DNA of 59,185 nt, filler included. It is 8 parts of 8 records of this genome, joined end to end, with 100 filler letters (N's around TTAATTAATTAA, not from the genome) between each part and the next. Parts side by side here need not be neighbours in the genome. Positions count along the whole stretch, not along the records: positions 6,420 to 13,665 come from SRR31156797_9673; 7 more parts are not named here. One strand, 5' to 3'. The notes beneath the pieces were generated by a model. That model worked only from the letters and a program-made list of their open reading frames with translations. It did no database searches and had not been told where the DNA came from. The stretch's first letter is position 1; each line of letters opens with the position of its first letter. This document shows positions 3,619 through 52,747 of this stretch, in pieces. Made by a program: the position numbers and the translations under genes.

Positions 3619-4122
3619 TTTAATCACCTCTTCAAAAAAATTTGAGCTAATTATCAATCTCCCCGTTAAATCCCGCCAATAATTTCTTTTTTCTAATCCC
3701 TATCAAATTCTATAAACCCGATTTCATAATAAAATATATTTATGTACAAATCTCCGTATTCATAATCGATTTCATCTATCGCCCCCGCTTTCATAGTTAA
3801 AATCTCTTGTTAACAAAGCTCCCAATAAAACGACATATTCTTGTACTATTATTTCATCTAGAAACATTTTGTTCCTATATTATAATCTATTACAAAAATA
3901 ATACATTAATATATTTTAACACTTTTTTTCCCAAAAAACAAGATACATTTAATAAAAAATTTTGTATACTTATTTTTACTCTCTTTAGCAAGAGACTTTA
4001 GTCAATATACAAGATATATATTTTCCAATACAATTGTTACTATATACAAGTTTCAATTCAATTAAATATTTAAGCATTTAACTAATTTGAATAGTTCAAG
4101 TTTTTAAATCAAAAAAAATAAA

Positions 4123-6319: not shown

Positions 6320-6419
6320 NNNNNNNNNNNNNNNNNNNNNNNNNNNNNNNNNNNNNNNNNNNNTTAATTAATTAANNNNNNNNNNNNNNNNNNNNNNNNN
6401 NNNNNNNNNNNNNNNNNNN
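6320..6419. other. Artificial contig-joining spacer
   Basis: N44-TTAATTAATTAA-N44, with stop codons in all six frames; composition changes across it. Confidence 0.98.
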
Positions 6420-6776
6420 ATTCATTTGACGACAGGTACGGGAAGTAAAAACAATAAGATCATGGTCACAATGGGTTATTTCCCCTGTACAGGGAAAGGG
6501 AATTCCTCAAGGGGCCTAATGACGCCGCGGTATTGGCTCTGGCTGCCATAGCCGCCGGCTGGAAATCAGCTATGAGTTTTAACGGGCGCATTTATATTTA
6601 AACATGGGAAAAACTTCACCCAAATTTAGAAAATTATTTTCCTTATAATTCCTGCGACTTATGGACTTTTATCAGATCAGTCAAGCTTCCATATCCATAA
6701 TTATGGTAATCAACTATCATAATTTATACAGTATATTCCCATTGCAATGAAGAATCGTCAAAAACCAATGCAATAA

Positions 6777-6792
6777 AGGTATATAACTTGCA
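6777..6792 (+). promoter_or_regulatory. Putative sigma-54 (-24/-12) promoter of the PEP-CTERM gene
   Basis: AGGTATATAACTTGCA: GG(6778-79)-N10-GC(6790-91), with TTGC at -12. Confidence 0.6.
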
Positions 6793-6863
6793 TATCATAA
6801 TAAAACGACAGTAATCTGCTGTCTGTAATCTATTAATTAAATTGAAAAAGAGGAGACGTAAAA

Positions 6864-7724
6864 GTGAGACGATTTTTAATTCAATTTGTTATGCTGTTCT
6901 TATTCTTAGTGGGGTTAACAGGAGTGAGTTCGGCTTCTTCTATTGATGTTTTATGGTACGGTGCTAACGACAACTTTAATGGTAAGGCTCAAACCCTTGC
7001 AGGTCAGGCCCCTAGCTATGATCCGGATGGAGACGGCAGCCTGACCTGGAATCTGGACATATGGTCCGACGGTGAAGCTATTGACTTTACCTCTTATGAT
7101 GTCCTGGTTATCGGTTCCTCTTCTATTTTTGGATCAGGTATGGACCCCGCTCGCCTGCTTGCAAGCAAGGCTGGAATTGAAGCGGCCAGGGGAACCAGAA
7201 CGTTCTTAAGCGGTCAGGATGCGGATTACCATTATAGGAATGATCTGAGTCACGGCTCTGCCGGGTTCATGATAAACGCTGTAAACTGGGCCGCCTCCGG
7301 CACTGGCCTTGGTATAGTTTCCATGGCTGACGGATTTGTTGGCTCAGGAAGTCAATGGTGGCTTAATGATGATTCATTTCTCAAGGATGAATTGGATGGG
7401 TATATGGAATATTGGCAGGATGAGAATGTTGTGATCCCCGCGGGAATGGAATCTTTCCCTGTTAATGAGGGCTTGACCACGGCATCATTGTCAAACTGGG
7501 GAATCTCTTCCCATTCAGGATTTTTGGGCGATGTCCCTGGCTATACCACAATTAATGTGTCCGGCACCTATCCGGGCAGGGGTATCACGATTGTCACCGA
7601 GGGGTATGAAGGTGGGGATACCAGCGGTGGGGATGACGACCCGCCAGCAGTGCCCGAGCCAACTACCATTCTTTTGTTTGGATTCGGGCTGCTGGGAATT
7701 GCAGGTATGACCAGAAAAAAATAA
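6864..7724 (+). CDS. PEP-CTERM sorting-domain surface protein
   Basis: Signal peptide; C-terminus VPEPTTILLFGFGLLGIAGMTRKK; AGGAG RBS before the GTG start. Confidence 0.93.
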   Translation: MRRFLIQFVMLFLFLVGLTGVSSASSIDVLWYGANDNFNGKAQTLAGQAPSYDPDGDGSLTWNLDIWSDGEAIDFTSYDVLVIGSSSIFGSGMDPARLLASKAGIEAARGTRTFLSGQDADYHYRNDLSHGSAGFMINAVNWAASGTGLGIVSMADGFVGSGSQWWLNDDSFLKDELDGYMEYWQDENVVIPAGMESFPVNEGLTTASLSNWGISSHSGFLGDVPGYTTINVSGTYPGRGITIVTEGYEGGDTSGGDDDPPAVPEPTTILLFGFGLLGIAGMTRKK

Positions 7725-7749
7725 TCTGATAAATAAACCCTATAATCTT

Positions 7750-7780
7750 AAAACAGGGGGCAAAAGCCCCCTGTTTTTTT
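7750..7780 (+). terminator. Intrinsic terminator
   Basis: AAAACAGGGGGC-AAAA-GCCCCCTGTTTTTTT. Confidence 0.9.
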
Positions 7781-8026
7781 GTTTTGGCTTGATTGGAAAT
7801 CTGTATTTCAGATCAGTGCACACCCGTTTTGTCAGCCTGCTGACAAGCCATCTATAAACCGGGCCCCCGGACGGCATTTGCCAAACCGGGCCGGGTAGCC
7901 CGGCAAAAACTTTCTCCAAATTTTCCTTCGGGATGATCGACCATATGATATGATATCCAGGGCTGAAGAAGGGACATCCCTATGCCCTGGTGCACACAGG
8001 CAAAATGCCCCAGGACTCTTTTTCTA

Positions 8027-8055
8027 TTGACACAAGAATTTAAAGAACATATCTT
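8027..8055 (+). promoter_or_regulatory. Sigma-70 promoter of the fluoride-riboswitch leader
   Basis: TTGACA(8027-32)-17 bp-TATCTT(8050-55), placing +1 a few nt before the aptamer. Confidence 0.75.
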
Positions 8056-8065
8056 TGCATTCTTC

Positions 8066-8116
8066 AATGGGGATGGAGTTCCCCGAAACTGCCCATAAAG
8101 GCTGATGACTCCTGCA
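8066..8116 (+). ncRNA. Fluoride riboswitch (crcB motif) aptamer
   Basis: GGGGATGGAGTTCCCC..AAACTGCC..GGCTGATGACTCCTGC matches the motif (GGnGATGGnGTTCnCC...GCTGATGACnCCT) and lies directly upstream of crcB. Confidence 0.95.
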
Positions 8117-8175
8117 TATTAAATGAACCGGACACGACAGCATGGCTGTTTTGTCTATAATGCAGGAGTTTTTTT
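8108..8175 (+). terminator. Riboswitch expression-platform terminator
   Basis: ACTCCTGCAT(8108-17) pairs with ATGCAGGAGT(8160-69), followed by a T run; the 5' arm overlaps the aptamer pseudoknot strand. Confidence 0.85.
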
Positions 8176-8216
8176 ATGTCCGAATCCATACACGCCCCCG
8201 TGAAAAGGGGGTAATC

Positions 8217-8597
8217 ATGATCACCCACAAACTATTCTGGATCGCCGGTGCAGGGGCTTTAGGCTCCGTGTCCCGGTACCTTCTTGCCGTCGGGGTACAG
8301 CGCGCAGCAGGCCCCGGTTTTCCCTGGGGAACCGCCACGGTGAATATCCTGGGGTGTTTTCTATTCGGCCTGGTCTGGGCTGCTGCCTGGGAACGGTGGT
8401 TCCTGGGCCCGGAAATAAAACTGGTGATCCTGGCCGGATTCATGGGAGCCTTTACCACATTTTCCACCTTTATATCCGAAACCGGGCAACTCATCGAAAC
8501 CTTTGAACTGATGAGGGCCGCTGGAAACATGGGCTTTCAGATAGCCGGCGGTATGGGGGCTTTTTTTACAGGCCAAACCCTGGGCCGGTTTATTTAA
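8217..8597 (+). CDS. crcB: Fluoride efflux channel Fluc/CrcB
   Basis: GALGSVSRY, PWGTATVNILG, GFMGAFTTFSTF; start moved to ATG 8217 (AAGGGGG RBS) because the longer ORF overlaps the riboswitch terminator. Confidence 0.95.
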   Translation: MITHKLFWIAGAGALGSVSRYLLAVGVQRAAGPGFPWGTATVNILGCFLFGLVWAAAWERWFLGPEIKLVILAGFMGAFTTFSTFISETGQLIETFELMRAAGNMGFQIAGGMGAFFTGQTLGRFI

Positions 8598-8631
8598 ATC
8601 AGCGGACAATATAACCAAAGGAAATTTCATC

Positions 8632-8961
8632 ATGAAAGAGAATTGGGAAATTCTCCGTATTTTCACCGGGGAACAGGCCCGGTACAACCGCCGGCCTTTT
8701 TACGAAGCCGTGGTAAACATCGCAAACGAACTGGGCCTGTCCGGTGCAACAGTGTTCCGGGGGAGCATGGGGTTCGGGCCCAAACATATGGTCCACACTT
8801 CAAAGATACTCTGCCTTTCTGAAGACCTGCCCGTGGTGGTGGAGATTGCGGACCGGCCGGAGAACCTGGATAAGCTCATGCCCTTTCTCAAAGAAAATAT
8901 GAAGCACGGGCTGATTGCCCGGGAAAAGGTCTCCGTGTTTATTCCGGGAAAAACACCGTAA
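8632..8961 (+). CDS. DUF190 PII-like protein
   Basis: LRIFTGE, GATVFRGSMGFG, LSEDLPVVVEI; usual crcB neighbour. Confidence 0.9.
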   Translation: MKENWEILRIFTGEQARYNRRPFYEAVVNIANELGLSGATVFRGSMGFGPKHMVHTSKILCLSEDLPVVVEIADRPENLDKLMPFLKENMKHGLIAREKVSVFIPGKTP

Positions 8962-8972
8962 AGGAAGCGGCC

Positions 8973-9317
8973 ATGCCCCCATTGTTTCGAATCCTGCCCA
9001 TGCTGGTCTGTTCCAACCTGTTCATGACATTCGCCTGGTACGGCCATCTGAAAACCATGGCGGCAAAGCCATGGATCATTGCCGCCCTTGCCAGCTGGGC
9101 CATTGCCCTCGGGGAATATCTTATCCAGGTGCCGGCCAACCGCATGGGCCATGCCTGTTACAGCCTGGCCCAGCTTAAAATCCTACAGGAAGCCGTAACA
9201 TTAGCCGTATTCATACCCTTTTCCATCTTCTATATGAAGGAAAGCTTTAAAACAGACTATATCTGGGCGGGTTGCTGCCTCATGGGGGCAGTCTATTTTA
9301 TGTTCCGAGGGAATTGA
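8973..9317 (+). CDS. DMT superfamily small membrane protein (DUF486 type)
   Basis: SNLFMTFAWYGHLK, EYLIQVPANRMG, QLKILQE. Confidence 0.88.
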   Translation: MPPLFRILPMLVCSNLFMTFAWYGHLKTMAAKPWIIAALASWAIALGEYLIQVPANRMGHACYSLAQLKILQEAVTLAVFIPFSIFYMKESFKTDYIWAGCCLMGAVYFMFRGN

Positions 9318-9362
9318 GCTGCGCCCTATAATCGGATTCCTTTAAATATAAGGAGAACTTCA

Positions 9363-10643
9363 ATGACAGAAAAAAAAATCGGGTTAACCGGAACCATTGC
9401 CATCGGCATCGGCGGAATGGTGGGCGGGGGAATATTCGCCGTTCTGGGAGAGGCCGTATCACTTGCCCACGGGGCCACTCCCCTTGCATTTTTATTTGCC
9501 GGTATTGTGGCACTACTGACGGCCTGCTCCTATGCAGATCTCTCTGTCACATATCCCAGCCAGGGCGGCACTGTGGTATTCATCGAAAAGGCGTTCGGCA
9601 CCGGACTTTTCCCCAAGGGGCTGAACATGATGCTCTGGCTAAGCTATCTGGTCACCCTCTCTCTTTATGCCGCGGCCTTCGGCGCATACGGCACCACCTT
9701 TTTCAAAGGAATTGATCCGGGAATTTTAAAACACATCCTAATCTCTGTGGGTATTCTCATTCCCGTGGCAATCAATATGCTCAACTCGGATATGGTAAGC
9801 AAATCTGAAACCCTGATTGTAATTGTTAAACTGGCCCTTCTAGGGGTAATTATTTGTACGGGAGTCGGATATGTGGATCCGGGACGGCTCTCTTTTTCCC
9901 GTTACGGACATCCCCTTTCCATTATTTCGGCCGGAATGATGATCTTTGTGGCTTATGAAGGATTTGAACTCATTGCCAATGCCGCAGCCGATGTAAAAAC
10001 CCCAACAAAAACCCTGCCCCGGGCCTTTTATTTATCCGTCATTATTGTGGTGCTACTCTATGTGGTCATTTCCGTGATAACGGTGGGTGCGGTGCCCGAA
10101 TCCGTGATCATGGCCTCCCGGGATTTCGCCCTAGCTGAAGCGGCCCGTCCCGGTTTGGGGGAACTCGGATTTCGCATCGTGGGGGTATCGGCCCTTTTAG
10201 CCACTCTGTCAGCCATAAATGCCACCATATACGGCAATGCCCGGCTGGGGTTTCTTCTGGCCAGGGAACGGGAACTGCCGGAGCCCCTTGAAATAAAAGT
10301 ATGGGGCGACTCCTATCTGGGGGTTCTCATCGTGGGGTGCCTTTCTCTGGTCATGGCCAATACCATTGACCTTACCGCCATTTCCATCATTGCCAGCGCA
10401 GGATTTTTATTGATTTTCACCGCCGTGAACCTATCCGCCTGCAAGCTGGCGAAAAAAACATGCGGCCATCCGCGCATCTCGGGGCTGGGGGCTGTCCTGT
10501 CTCTGAACGCTCTGATCCTGCTGCTGGTCAACACCTGGAAAAGCAGTCCCCACACCATCTATATATTTTTCGGATTTATACTCTTTTCCCTTGGATTTGA
10601 AATAATTTACGGCCGGCTTATCGCTTCGAACACAAGGAATTAA
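9363..10643 (+). CDS. APC family amino-acid permease
   Basis: GGMVGGGIF (TM1), FVAYEGFELI (TM6), ~12 TM. Confidence 0.9.
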   Translation: MTEKKIGLTGTIAIGIGGMVGGGIFAVLGEAVSLAHGATPLAFLFAGIVALLTACSYADLSVTYPSQGGTVVFIEKAFGTGLFPKGLNMMLWLSYLVTLSLYAAAFGAYGTTFFKGIDPGILKHILISVGILIPVAINMLNSDMVSKSETLIVIVKLALLGVIICTGVGYVDPGRLSFSRYGHPLSIISAGMMIFVAYEGFELIANAAADVKTPTKTLPRAFYLSVIIVVLLYVVISVITVGAVPESVIMASRDFALAEAARPGLGELGFRIVGVSALLATLSAINATIYGNARLGFLLARERELPEPLEIKVWGDSYLGVLIVGCLSLVMANTIDLTAISIIASAGFLLIFTAVNLSACKLAKKTCGHPRISGLGAVLSLNALILLLVNTWKSSPHTIYIFFGFILFSLGFEIIYGRLIASNTRN

Positions 10644-10667
10644 ACCCAATAAAAAGAAGGAAACAAC

Positions 10668-11597
10668 ATGATCATCATTTTACCGGAAACACAGGCAAAC
10701 ATTTTAGAAATTGAGGTGGGTGGACGGCTGACCCAATCAGACTATACAACCACCTTTCTGCCCAGGCTGAAACACCTGTTAGCCACCTTCCCCAAGGCCC
10801 GTATCTTAGTTGTTTTTGCCCCCTCCTATGAGGGCATGGATATGGCGGCGGTATGGGAAGATACCCGATTCGCCATGGCCCATCCCCGCGACTTTGAAAA
10901 AATTGCCGTTGTCGGAGCCCCGGGCTGGATGAAATGGGCCACGAACCTGGGCGCAGGTCTCACGGACACTGAGGTTAATTTTTACGAACCCTGGCAGCTT
11001 AACCCGGCCATGGACTGGATTAAAACACCGTTACAAGACTCAACAGGAGACACTATCATGAAAGAAAAAAGCAGCTGCGTAGCCATCTACAATACCCACA
11101 CTGAAGCGGAAAATGCCGTCCGGGCATTGCAGAAATCCGGATTTAACATGAAACATCTTTCTATTCTGGGTAAAGACTATCATACAGAAGAAGATGTAAC
11201 AGGATACTACAGCCTTGGAGACCGGATGAAATCCTGGGGTAAACTCGGGGCATTCTGGGGGGGGCTCTGGGGTTTCATGCTGGGATCCGCCTTTTTTGTC
11301 ATCCCCGGTATCGGTCCTCTGGTGGTGGGCGGCCCCATGGTATCCTGGATCGTGGGCGCCCTGGAAGGCGCCGCCCTGACCGGAGGAATCAGCGCCCTGG
11401 GCGCAGGCCTTTTAAGCATCGGCATTCCCGGGGACAGCATTATAAAATATGAAACCGCCATCAAGGCGGATAAATTCATGGTTGTGGCCCATGGCCCGGC
11501 AGATGAGGTGGAAAAAGCCCAGGCCCTTCTCAAAGAAACGGATGTCCACGAAATTTCAACGCATATGGAAGAGGCTGCCCAGATGATGGGACTCTGA
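10668..11597 (+). CDS. SpoIIAA-like (STAS/SEC14) domain fused to a DUF1269/general-stress-type glycine-rich membrane domain
   Basis: N-terminal GRLTQSDY...AVWED...EKIAVVG..WM; C-terminal GAFWGGLWG..IPGIGP..GALEGA; internal RBS and ATG at 11058. Confidence 0.8.
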   Translation: MIIILPETQANILEIEVGGRLTQSDYTTTFLPRLKHLLATFPKARILVVFAPSYEGMDMAAVWEDTRFAMAHPRDFEKIAVVGAPGWMKWATNLGAGLTDTEVNFYEPWQLNPAMDWIKTPLQDSTGDTIMKEKSSCVAIYNTHTEAENAVRALQKSGFNMKHLSILGKDYHTEEDVTGYYSLGDRMKSWGKLGAFWGGLWGFMLGSAFFVIPGIGPLVVGGPMVSWIVGALEGAALTGGISALGAGLLSIGIPGDSIIKYETAIKADKFMVVAHGPADEVEKAQALLKETDVHEISTHMEEAAQMMGL

Positions 11598-11632
11598 TGT
11601 TCTAAAACAAAACCAGGAGGGAAACAACACCC

Positions 11633-12904
11633 ATGAAAGATACCATTAAAAAAATTACGGCCATGGAAATCCTTGACTCACGGGGAAACCCCACCATTAA
11701 GGTCCGGGTTGAACTGGAAGACGGAACAATGAGGGCCGCTTCCGTGCCCTCGGGCGCTTCCACGGGAATGAATGAAGCGGTGGAGCTTCGGGACAATGAC
11801 CCGTCCCGGTATTCGGGCAAAGGAGTGCTCAAAGCTGTTGAAAAAGTCGAAAAAATCTGCGGGCCACAGATCATCGGCATGTCCGCCCGGGATCAGGCAG
11901 GGGTTGACCGCTGCCTCATGGAAATCGACGGCTCCGCGAATAAGGCAGTCCTGGGCGCCAACACCATTCTGGGGATCTCCCTGGCCGTGGCCAGGGCAGG
12001 TGCCGGCTCTGCAGGCCTTCCCTTGTTCACATACCTGGGAGGTCTTGATGCCCGCCGCCTCCCCGTTCCCTGCATGAATATCCTCAACGGCGGACAGCAT
12101 GCCGACAACAACGTTGATTTCCAAGAATTCATGGCCGTCCCTCTGGGTGCCCCGAATTTCAGGGAAGGACTGAGGTATGTGGCAGAAACCCTCCATGCAC
12201 TGAAAAAAATTCTAAGGGAAAAAGGATTGGCCACCAATGTAGGGGATGAGGGCGGGTTTGCCCCGGACCTGGACAATGACGAACAGGCCATGGAGTTGAT
12301 TATCCGGGCCATTGACCAGGCAGGATACTGCCCCGGAAAAGATATCTCCATTGCCATTGACAGCGCCGCCACCTCCTTTGCCATATCACCCGGCGGCCCC
12401 TATTCCCTTAATTCCATGGATGGGGCGCCCCTTGCCGCCAATGACCTGGCACGGCTTGCAAAGAAATGGGTCTCCACCTATCCCATTGTGCTCTGGGAAG
12501 ACCCATTGGCTGAAGATGACTGGGAAGGGTTCAGGGAATTCACCCGGATATTGGGATCTGACATCGAAGTGGTGGGGGATGATATTTTCGTGACCAACCC
12601 CGAACTGATTCAGCGGGGGATCAACGAAAAAACCGCCAATTCCTCCCTGATCAAGCCCAACCAGATCGGCACTCTTACCGAAACCATGGATGCAGTCCGC
12701 CTCTGCCGGGAAAATGGATGGCGCTACTTCATCTCCCACCGCTCCGGGGAAACCGAAGACCCGTTTATCGCCGATTTTGCCGTTGCCATGGGCGGGGGGC
12801 ACCTCAAAACCGGCTCCGCCTGCCGGGGAGAACGGATATGCAAATACAACCGGCTCCTGGAAATTGAAGCACAGCTCGGCAGATCCGGACGCTATTATTG
12901 GTGA
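11633..12904 (+). CDS. eno: Enolase (phosphopyruvate hydratase)
   Basis: EILDSRGNPT, VPSGASTG, GDEGGF, EDP, VGDD, LIKPNQIG, SHRSGETED and KTG all present. Confidence 0.97.
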   Translation: MKDTIKKITAMEILDSRGNPTIKVRVELEDGTMRAASVPSGASTGMNEAVELRDNDPSRYSGKGVLKAVEKVEKICGPQIIGMSARDQAGVDRCLMEIDGSANKAVLGANTILGISLAVARAGAGSAGLPLFTYLGGLDARRLPVPCMNILNGGQHADNNVDFQEFMAVPLGAPNFREGLRYVAETLHALKKILREKGLATNVGDEGGFAPDLDNDEQAMELIIRAIDQAGYCPGKDISIAIDSAATSFAISPGGPYSLNSMDGAPLAANDLARLAKKWVSTYPIVLWEDPLAEDDWEGFREFTRILGSDIEVVGDDIFVTNPELIQRGINEKTANSSLIKPNQIGTLTETMDAVRLCRENGWRYFISHRSGETEDPFIADFAVAMGGGHLKTGSACRGERICKYNRLLEIEAQLGRSGRYYW

Positions 12905-13010
12905 TATCCGGGATTAAATTTTCCCACTGCCGTGCCCAATGTCAGGGTAACGGGTACGGCAATGGTGGTGCCCCTTCCATAATATACGGAATCGAATCAA
13001 AGGGAAAAAA

Positions 13011-13382
13011 ATGATCAAGCACTTTAATGAACATGCTGCCAATGAACGGACCCTGCTGGCCTGGGTCAGAACATCTCTGGCCGTAAGCGGGTTCGGGTTT
13101 CTAATGGAAAAATTTGAACTTTTTATTACAAAAGTTCATCTATCTTCCCGGGCAGAGGACATTGCAGCAAGCCCCATGGGACGGTTTATCGGACTCGGAC
13201 TTGTGGCCACCGGAATGGTAATGATGCTGTTCAGCGTCCTGCGCTATCTGATTATTCAAAAGCGGATTGAAACCCAAGCCGAAAAGGTTTTCAGCGGATT
13301 TCCAGGCCTGGTCCTGCCCCTTATTCTCATGGGCATTGTTATCCTGGTGATGCTCTATCTGGGCTTACAGCTTGCCGGATGA
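13011..13382 (+). CDS. YidH/DUF202 family membrane protein
   Basis: HAANERTLLAWVRTSLA..GFGF motif, 3 TM. Confidence 0.9.
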   Translation: MIKHFNEHAANERTLLAWVRTSLAVSGFGFLMEKFELFITKVHLSSRAEDIAASPMGRFIGLGLVATGMVMMLFSVLRYLIIQKRIETQAEKVFSGFPGLVLPLILMGIVILVMLYLGLQLAG

Positions 13383-13665
13383 ATTCATCTGCCTTAGAAA
13401 GGGGATAATCAGGTCTGTGGCCTGCCGGGCCCAGACGGAATGGATACCGGGACCGGGGTGGAATCCGTCCTCTGCCATGAGGGCCGGGTCAAGGGGAAGG
13501 TCAAAGGAAAGAAAGTGAAGGCCCTCCCCCTTGGGCATCCAGCCGGAAATAAGGCGGTTCATTTTTTGGGCCTGCCGTCCCAGATACCAGCTTAAGGGAA
13601 AGGGCAATGCCGGAAATTTTTCCAAAGGCGGCACCGCCGAAACAATGATCTGCCTGATGCCGTAT
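13365..13665 (-). CDS. SGNH/GDSL hydrolase, C-terminal part (partial)
   Basis: PPLEKFPALPFPLSWYLG and the catalytic block DGFHP; frame open to the contig edge. Confidence 0.75.
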
Positions 13666-13765
13666 NNNNNNNNNNNNNNNNNNNNNNNNNNNNNNNNNNN
13701 NNNNNNNNNTTAATTAATTAANNNNNNNNNNNNNNNNNNNNNNNNNNNNNNNNNNNNNNNNNNNN
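13666..13765. other. Artificial contig-joining spacer
   Basis: N44-TTAATTAATTAA-N44. Confidence 0.98.
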
Positions 13766-19492: not shown

Positions 19493-19592
19493 NNNNNNNN
19501 NNNNNNNNNNNNNNNNNNNNNNNNNNNNNNNNNNNNTTAATTAATTAANNNNNNNNNNNNNNNNNNNNNNNNNNNNNNNNNNNNNNNNNNNN
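19493..19592. other. Artificial contig-joining spacer
   Basis: N44-TTAATTAATTAA-N44. Confidence 0.98.
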
Positions 19593-25508: not shown

Positions 25509-25608
25509 NNNNNNNNNNNNNNNNNNNNNNNNNNNNNNNNNNNNNNNNNNNNTTAATTAATTAANNNNNNNNNNNNNNNNNNNNNNNNNNNNNNNNNNNN
25601 NNNNNNNN
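25509..25608. other. Artificial contig-joining spacer
   Basis: N44-TTAATTAATTAA-N44. Confidence 0.98.
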
Positions 25609-33081: not shown

Positions 33082-33181
33082 NNNNNNNNNNNNNNNNNNN
33101 NNNNNNNNNNNNNNNNNNNNNNNNNTTAATTAATTAANNNNNNNNNNNNNNNNNNNNNNNNNNNNNNNNNNNNNNNNNNNN
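33082..33181. other. Artificial contig-joining spacer
   Basis: N44-TTAATTAATTAA-N44. Confidence 0.98.
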
Positions 33182-42439: not shown

Positions 42440-42539
42440 NNNNNNNNNNNNNNNNNNNNNNNNNNNNNNNNNNNNNNNNNNNNTTAATTAATTAANNNNN
42501 NNNNNNNNNNNNNNNNNNNNNNNNNNNNNNNNNNNNNNN
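42440..42539. other. Artificial contig-joining spacer
   Basis: N44-TTAATTAATTAA-N44. Confidence 0.98.
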
Positions 42540-52647: not shown

Positions 52648-52747
52648 NNNNNNNNNNNNNNNNNNNNNNNNNNNNNNNNNNNNNNNNNNNNTTAATTAAT
52701 TAANNNNNNNNNNNNNNNNNNNNNNNNNNNNNNNNNNNNNNNNNNNN
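52648..52747. other. Artificial contig-joining spacer
   Basis: N44-TTAATTAATTAA-N44. Confidence 0.98.

Follow-up and report, generated by a model that had tools for sequence, protein, structure and literature searches.

A probable fluoride-defence operon: a fluoride riboswitch ahead of a compact seven-gene cluster that includes an enolase

In the Enterobacter cloacae FRM operon, a fluoride riboswitch heads the genes ppaC-uspA-eno-gpmA-crcB-orf5249, and the report on this operon describes experimental evidence that fluoride induces the genes, that they are co-transcribed and that they contribute to resistance (PMC5533749). According to a review, enolase genes are often found in fluoride riboswitch operons (PMC11139923); the common associates of the riboswitch that follow the exporters in frequency are described as Na+/H+ antiporters, pyrophosphatase, haloacid-dehalogenase-type enzymes and formate hydrogen lyase. 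The crcB riboswitch of Bacillus cereus is reported to be a transcriptional ON switch composed of an aptamer and an intrinsic terminator (PMC8752731). Here we describe a locus on a contig of 7,246 nt (positions 6420-13665) that is part of an assembled stretch of 59,185 nt, the whole of which is called the window below. On this contig a fluoride riboswitch precedes seven genes of the same orientation, which encode CrcB, a DUF190 protein, a DMT_6 protein, an APC-superfamily permease, a SpoIIAA-like/YflT fusion protein, an enolase and a DUF202 protein. It is probable that a transcriptional ON fluoride riboswitch drives these genes as a compact fluoride-defence operon. The arrangement riboswitch-crcB-DUF190-enolase is already known (PMC5533749, PMC11139923, and locus L073 of our survey), and for the other four genes the likeliest role is that of cargo specific to the lineage, which would be co-induced without belonging to a conserved fluoride module.

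The locus resembles FRM in that a riboswitch, crcB and a presumably extra enolase gene belong to one co-oriented multi-gene cluster. Unlike in the gene order given for FRM, no ppaC, uspA or gpmA family was found by Pfam among the seven proteins or in the product of the upstream gene, and crcB is the first gene here and the fifth there. DUF190, DMT_6, the APC permease, the SpoIIAA-like/YflT fusion and DUF202 do not occur in the published FRM gene order. Since ppaC, uspA and gpmA are missing, the cluster is the same kind of operon as FRM but not the same operon. With the canonical riboswitch-crcB-DUF190 units it shares the order of these elements. In L073, the enolase gene follows DUF190 directly and encodes a protein 59% identical to the window enolase; in contrast to L073, three genes are inserted between DUF190 and enolase in the window and DUF202 is appended.

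The aptamer (crcB motif) lies at 8060-8121 on the plus strand. In an Rfam scan, RF01734 scored 57.4 bits (gathering score 34; E 2.5e-13), was covered from position 1 to 64 of its 64 positions, and was the sole Rfam hit across the window. The cmscan alignment matches the core GGxGAUGGxGUUCxCC ... CUGAUGAxUCCU and also the pseudoknot strands GGAGU/ACUCC; the short second helix contains one non-standard pair. The expression platform extends from 8107 to 8175 on the same strand and consists of a terminator hairpin (8107-8169) followed by a T7 tract (8169-8175). The arms of the hairpin are GACTCCTGCAT on the 5' side (8107-8117) and ATGCAGGAGT on the 3' side (8160-8169). The 5' arm includes the 3' pseudoknot strand of the aptamer, ACUCC, which is the partner of GGAGU in the fluoride-bound form, and the competition between aptamer and terminator that is expected of an ON switch follows from this shared strand. 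The 127-nt leader folds with -41.3 kcal/mol (minimum free energy and centroid structures; z -3.19), a value as good as which was reached by none of 200 shuffled sequences.

These features suggest the following course of events. Without fluoride, ACUCCUGCAU (8108-8117) would pair with AUGCAGGAGU (8160-8169), the terminator would form and transcription would halt at the U7 run, 5' of crcB. With fluoride, the Mg-F-bound aptamer would keep ACUCC in the pseudoknot and thereby block the terminator, and RNA polymerase would continue into crcB and DUF190. From there, read-through would proceed with falling certainty into DMT_6, the APC permease gene, the SpoIIAA-like/YflT gene, the enolase gene and DUF202. 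CrcB would then export fluoride, DUF190 would serve as a conserved accessory in the fluoride unit, and the extra enolase would compensate for the enzyme inhibited by fluoride. The combination of aptamer and intrinsic terminator is like that of the B. cereus crcB riboswitch (PMC8752731), the strand competition being deduced here from sequence and fold. We infer that the leader responds to fluoride as a switch; the unit made up of riboswitch, terminator platform, crcB and DUF190 is textbook.

A sigma-70-like promoter, TTGACA-17-TATCTT, with 10 of 12 consensus matches, is predicted at 8027-8055 on the plus strand, and transcription would start a few nucleotides 5' of the aptamer core. Taken by itself this promoter call is weak, because 18 promoter-like sites occur in the region as against 11.9 +/- 3.8 in shuffled sequences. 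The gene upstream of the operon, which encodes a PEP-CTERM protein (6864-7724; Pfam E 1.4e-6), ends in a strong intrinsic terminator at 7750-7777 on the plus strand, composed of a 12-pair stem with 7 GC pairs and a subsequent T run. As this terminator closes the upstream gene, the operon needs a promoter of its own, and the site at 8027-8055 is the candidate. A first reading of this DNA, made from the letters without database searches and called here the sequence-only reading, had placed a promoter, a fluoride aptamer and a terminator ahead of crcB; all three are present, the promoter as a consensus match only.

The genes were identified with Pfam, every hit being above the curated cut-off, and all seven are encoded on the plus strand. 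The crcB gene (8217-8597) codes for a Fluc-type fluoride channel subunit of 126 residues that scored 83.9 bits with CRCB, the cut-off being 32.9. Translation is assigned to the in-frame ATG at 8217, which has the ribosome-binding site GGGGG upstream; a longer open reading frame starting at 8142 was rejected as it overlaps the terminator. The NCBIfam equivalog models that match the product all name CrcB (best E 2e-26), with scores below the equivalog cut-offs (best 92.8 vs 129; TIGR00494 69.7 vs 80.45). DUF190 (COG1993), the usual partner of crcB, follows at 8632-8961 (115.8 bits, E 1.1e-33), and then comes DMT_6, formerly DUF486, a small membrane protein of four helices (8973-9317; 148.3 bits, E 9.8e-44). 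The next gene (9363-10643) encodes an APC-superfamily, amino-acid-type permease of 426 residues that matches AA_permease_2 with 104 bits (E 1.1e-29) and the NCBIfam amino acid transporter model TIGR00909 with E 1.3e-51, the latter below the cut-off.

The fifth gene (10668-11597) encodes a protein of 309 residues in which a SpoIIAA-like (STAS-like) domain (77.1 bits) is joined to a YflT/DUF1269 glycine-zipper membrane domain of the 'general stress' type (37.2 bits). Among 120 listed matches, one, P0010, covers the full length of the fusion, with 46% identity over 301 residues; the remaining listed matches are proteins of 171-176 residues that align, at about 70% identity, with the C-terminal half only. 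Because P0010 has the same two-domain layout, the fusion, though rare, is real and not a sequencing slip. The sixth gene (11633-12904) encodes the enolase, with 423 residues, 181 bits for Enolase_N and 344 bits for Enolase_C, and the last (13011-13382) a small YidH-like membrane protein of the DUF202 family (62 bits, E 7.6e-17). Pfam thus found all seven co-oriented genes where the sequence-only reading had put them.

The spacing of the genes argues for a single transcription unit. From crcB to DUF202 the intergenic gaps measure 34, 11, 45, 24, 35 and 106 nt, in agreement with the gaps of 11-45 bp, and of 106 bp before DUF202, given at first sight. Each of the seven genes is preceded by a purine-rich ribosome-binding site. 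Terminator-like sites number 16 in the region (11.9 +/- 3.6 in shuffled sequences), and those within the operon fall inside reading frames and are followed by poor T tracts, so the lack of an internal terminator that had been claimed held up in the sense that none is convincing. The tight spacing, the ribosome-binding sites, the common orientation and the lack of a convincing internal terminator together favour one transcription unit. On its 3' side the cluster is bounded at seven genes by a convergent gene that continues past the contig edge; its 3' end is present as an open frame of 99 codons (13365-13664, minus strand), with an 18-nt overlap at the stop of DUF202. No Pfam family was found for this fragment.

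How often the genes of the cluster accompany a fluoride riboswitch was assessed in a metagenome collection that was scanned for the riboswitch core motif. The scan yielded at least 122 loci with 126 riboswitch segments, two of the loci, L070 and L071, overlapping on one contig. Downstream DNA of at least 1 kb was available in 58 segments, of at least 3 kb in 41 and of at least 5 kb in 35, and a sample of 122 loci detects only associations above a few percent. When the window proteins were compared with the listed loci by tblastn (E <= 1e-3), crcB was found in 67 of the 126 segments and DUF190 in 32 of the 126, which bears out the description of DUF190 as a usual companion of crcB. Enolase occurred in eight of the 126 segments, representing four distinct genes (L070/L071, L073, L078 and L132) and a short weak match (L051). 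The earlier statement that fluoride riboswitches control crcB and sometimes enolase is therefore supported by L073, L070 and L078 as well as by the published accounts (PMC5533749, PMC11139923). DUF202 was found in two listed loci (L065 and L069), and the APC permease gave two marginal matches, one on the opposite strand (L028) and one with 23% identity 5.7 kb downstream (L066). DMT_6, SpoIIAA-like and YflT homologues were found in none of the 122 listed loci. A search with hidden Markov models of the window proteins and their relatives over 6,805 six-frame pieces of at least 50 residues from the 122 loci had the same outcome. Pfam, applied to the first 150 of 337 downstream open reading frames, returned CRCB, DUF190, CLC, Na_H_Exchanger, H+-pyrophosphatase, MutS-related, NUDIX and MFS families, and none of the DMT_6, APC permease, SpoIIAA-like/YflT or DUF202 families.

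The survey also revealed features of other riboswitch loci. Genes for dynamin-like GTPases were met repeatedly behind fluoride riboswitches: in L040 together with two MutS-related proteins, in L070 together with an AAA ATPase, a HEAT-repeat protein, an enolase, a HAD-type hydrolase and a HIT protein, and in L078 directly after the enolase. In L070 (8077-8799, minus strand), a gene behind a riboswitch and after a Na/H exchanger-universal stress protein-crcB series encodes a protein of 240 residues in which two DUF190 stretches stand in tandem and P-II is weakly matched. In L039 (4461-6214, minus strand), a gene for a CLC-type channel comes after the riboswitch, and the next encodes a half-size EamA/DMT protein of 148 residues; apart from DMT_6 of the window, no small DMT-type protein but this one was seen behind a riboswitch in the first 150 open reading frames scanned.

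The question was also approached from the side of the four families whose link to fluoride is doubtful. In a species-genome collection, 10 loci with relatives of the permease were inspected over a neighbourhood of 10 kb; the closest relative, from Vibrio hepatarius, is 73% identical, those of Sulfurimonas are 55-57% and those of Saprospiraceae and others 43-47% identical. None of the 10 loci contained crcB, DUF190, DMT_6, enolase or DUF202 within 10 kb; in one, L006, a YflT homologue lies 3.7 kb away. Rfam detected no fluoride riboswitch in the seven of these 10 loci that were scanned, nor one above the cut-off in five whole genomes searched. Nine DMT_6 loci among the matches listed, with protein identities of 55-76%, were inspected up to 8 kb on each side and contained neither other genes of the operon nor an Rfam fluoride riboswitch; other operon genes were likewise absent from two further DMT_6 contexts in a plasmid collection, and the searches of that collection with DUF202 and DMT_6 showed no fluoride context among the matches examined. 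Three YflT loci had no crcB or DUF190 within 1.5 kb on each side. In searches of an open-access library, no paper was found that ties DUF486/DMT_6, DUF202, DUF1269/YflT or SpoIIAA-like proteins to fluoride; the papers found that mention crcB together with DUF486 are concerned with classification in the Pfam DMT clan.

DUF202 differs somewhat from the other families. In L065 (8819-9634) and L069 (5010-5729), a DUF202-DUF302 fusion gene follows riboswitch-crcB-DUF190-MFS on the same strand and precedes genes for an MrfA-like helicase and an RNase_H_2 protein. The locus under study has in common with them that a DUF202 domain comes after riboswitch-crcB-DUF190 in the same orientation; there, the domain is fused to DUF302 and comes after an MFS transporter, whereas in the window DUF202 follows the enolase gene. 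As the L065 and L069 proteins are 84% identical to each other, they count as one additional lineage, and their sister loci L041, L052, L066 and L094, which have matching flanks, showed no DUF202. The recurrence of DUF202 with riboswitch-crcB-DUF190 is thus a weak hint.

The sequence-only reading had proposed that the DMT, APC permease, SpoIIAA fusion and DUF202 proteins may be parts of a fluoride-stress module. As a recurrent module this was not borne out, either in the 122 riboswitch loci or in the loci anchored on the families. DMT_6, SpoIIAA-like and YflT homologues were not seen with crcB or the riboswitch in any sample, and the permease was without crcB or DUF190 at its own loci and marginal at the riboswitch loci. 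DUF202 recurs in one other lineage, and no wider recurrence was observed. Most simply, DMT_6, the permease and the SpoIIAA-like/YflT fusion would be lineage-specific cargo, although absence from these samples is no proof that they lack a function.

Several points weigh against a single seven-gene fluoride-defence operon. Co-transcription beyond DUF190 is likely, but it is read from the spacing of the genes. Promoter-like sites lie inside the cluster at 11030-11059 and 11419-11448, both upstream of the enolase gene, and at 12558-12586, a hairpin with a weak T tract is found at 9274-9292 near the end of DMT_6, and the 106-nt spacer between the enolase gene and DUF202 (12905-13010) contains a stable hairpin, CUGCCGUGCCC...GGGUACGGCA, which is without a U tract and may serve processing or stabilisation instead of termination. 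The internal promoter-like sites and the spacer hairpin mean that independent or processed transcripts are possible. Homologues of four of the seven genes have almost no linkage to fluoride elsewhere, and no syntenic relative of the entire cluster was found in the species-genome collection or in DNA searches of 401 genomes of one phylum and 301 genomes of another, the former giving only short matches of 64-78% to enolase, YflT and DMT_6 and the latter a single match at chance level. An exact-match search of a collection of 15 billion proteins retrieved none of eight window proteins. Furthermore, if the enolase were the sole enolase of the organism, it must be expressed without fluoride too.

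One alternative confines the riboswitch unit to crcB and DUF190, perhaps with DMT_6, and regards the distal four genes as co-oriented neighbours that are transcribed mainly from internal promoters. It draws on the isolation of DMT_6, SpoIIAA-like, YflT and the permease from fluoride loci described above, on the first two of the promoter-like sites and the hairpin near the end of DMT_6, and on the observation that most of the sampled riboswitch units beginning with crcB-DUF190 continue into unrelated genes. Arguing against this alternative are the gaps of 24-45 nt, which leave little space for promoters, the frequency of the internal promoter-like and terminator-like matches, which is not higher than in shuffled sequence, and the position of the 9274-9292 hairpin within a translated frame. 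Moreover, an enolase gene behind crcB-DUF190 recurs in L073, and in the window the enolase gene lies past the three doubtful genes; L073 thus indicates that at least the enolase belongs to the unit. A short riboswitch unit of this kind is possible but doubtful, and we retain the seven-gene operon as the probable arrangement.

The role assigned to the enolase in the seven-gene operon depends on its being an extra copy. Over its whole length the protein can be aligned with solved enolases (E 1.4e-142 for 4rop_A, covering residues 5-421). In the 4rop_A alignment there is identity throughout SGASTG, DEGGFAP, VGDD, NQIGTLTET, SHRSGETED and KTGS, which we take to be active-site stretches with catalytic roles, for which reason the enzyme looks functional. 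This ordinary, apparently intact enolase might also be the only housekeeping enolase of the organism, with a promoter of its own that keeps it constitutively expressed and with read-through adding no more than a boost in the presence of fluoride. Such an explanation could point to the promoter-like site 185 nt upstream of the gene and to the lack of a second enolase elsewhere in the window, but the other contigs of the window represent only about 52 kb of the genome, so that finding no further copy in them carries little weight. The best matches of the enolase reach no more than 70% identity and come from mixed phyla, among them a 424-residue protein of Francisella philomiragia, which fits a mobile extra copy without proving it.

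Plasmid-borne enolases are common (359 records). The best plasmid match, from Fulvitalea (64%), showed no fluoride context. The second-best plasmid match overall, and the best that is linked to fluoride, is the enolase of Methylocystis (63% identity), which is encoded in a fluoride island, as would be expected if it were a mobile extra copy. We regard it as unlikely that the window enolase is the only one of its host, and prefer an extra enolase within the riboswitch-controlled operon. The island, located on a plasmid of Methylocystis sp. MJC1 (L159), resembles the window locus in having crcB, DUF190, enolase and fluoride riboswitches. It differs in its three separate riboswitches, which lie within 6 kb (947-1008 and 3952-4013 on the plus strand, 6440-6501 on the minus strand), and in its cation:proton antiporter and universal stress protein; its enolase gene is not directly behind a riboswitch of the same strand, and none of the four doubtful families occurs in it. 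The riboswitches of the island head an antiporter-universal stress protein-crcB-DUF190 series, two genes for hypothetical proteins of 151 and 127 residues, and, on the other strand, a gene for a HEAT-repeat protein. No Pfam family was found for the two hypothetical proteins, and they are better candidates for new fluoride factors than the extra genes of the window.

The limits within which gene neighbourhoods can be read are set by the assembly. The window is composed of eight contigs of 5.7-10.1 kb that are joined by seven spacers of the form N44-TTAATTAATTAA-N44 (6320-6419, 13666-13765, 19493-19592, 25509-25608, 33082-33181, 42440-42539 and 52648-52747). Five contigs have a GC content of 0.28-0.32 and three of 0.51-0.52, and this bimodality points to a metagenomic assembly that is mixed or loosely binned; the contig with the operon has a GC content of 0.509, the adjoining contigs of 0.299 and 0.281. 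Because the window is stitched together from contigs of such an assembly, gene neighbourhoods are not readable across the spacers, and as a practical lesson all arguments from neighbourhood are confined to 6420-13665. A large histidine kinase beyond DUF202 was ruled out as a neighbour of the operon, since the operon contig stops at 13665 and the kinase gene is on a separate contig past the spacer.

A Logan contig of 7,178 nt from sequencing run X1 is identical to 6420-13597 without a single difference; X1 is probably the source sample, and the contig probably stems from the same reads. With 1.5 million contigs, X1 represents a community and not a pure culture. In a second run, X2, a sediment metagenome from another study, three contigs of 151 nt at a depth of about 2 match 8038-8188, 9857-10007 and 10080-10230 with 0-1 differences and cover the riboswitch itself and stretches of the permease gene, from which it follows that the same or a nearly identical organism is present in a second sample. 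One X1 contig was reported to join 6449 and 13568 (85% threshold), its short side being the 30 letters of 6420-6449; a circle or repeat was dropped as an explanation, the contig ends having no 12-mer in common in either orientation. A contig of 295 nt and double depth covers 13568-13665 and continues past the end; a repeat at the contig end may be involved. That the gene order is an artefact of a chimeric contig in a mixed bin, as the concatenation of short contigs of two GC classes (about 0.30 and 0.51) and the community origin of X1 might suggest, is very improbable in view of the even GC content (0.48-0.58) over 7000-13600, the exact agreement of the Logan contig, even if from the same reads, and the matching pieces from the second study.

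The locus is another example of the strategy that combines an exporter with a spare enolase. Fluoride riboswitch regulons are among the few places in which uncharacterised genes acquire a stress context from the DNA itself. The operon offers four such candidate genes, three of which are, on the comparative evidence, probably passengers, and the locus is therefore useful as annotation rather than as discovery. The stronger proposition, that the seven genes form one fluoride-induced transcript and that one or more of the membrane proteins without a known function measurably aid fluoride tolerance, is at present improbable. Its best candidate is DUF202, because in a second lineage, too, riboswitch-crcB-DUF190 has DUF202 behind it, there as a DUF202-DUF302 fusion; further candidates are the permease, DMT_6 and the SpoIIAA-like/YflT fusion. 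If a membrane protein of the operon did aid tolerance, families so far without any functional handle would gain their first. If the cluster is transcribed as one unit, the four extra proteins would be induced by fluoride in this organism, whatever their role.

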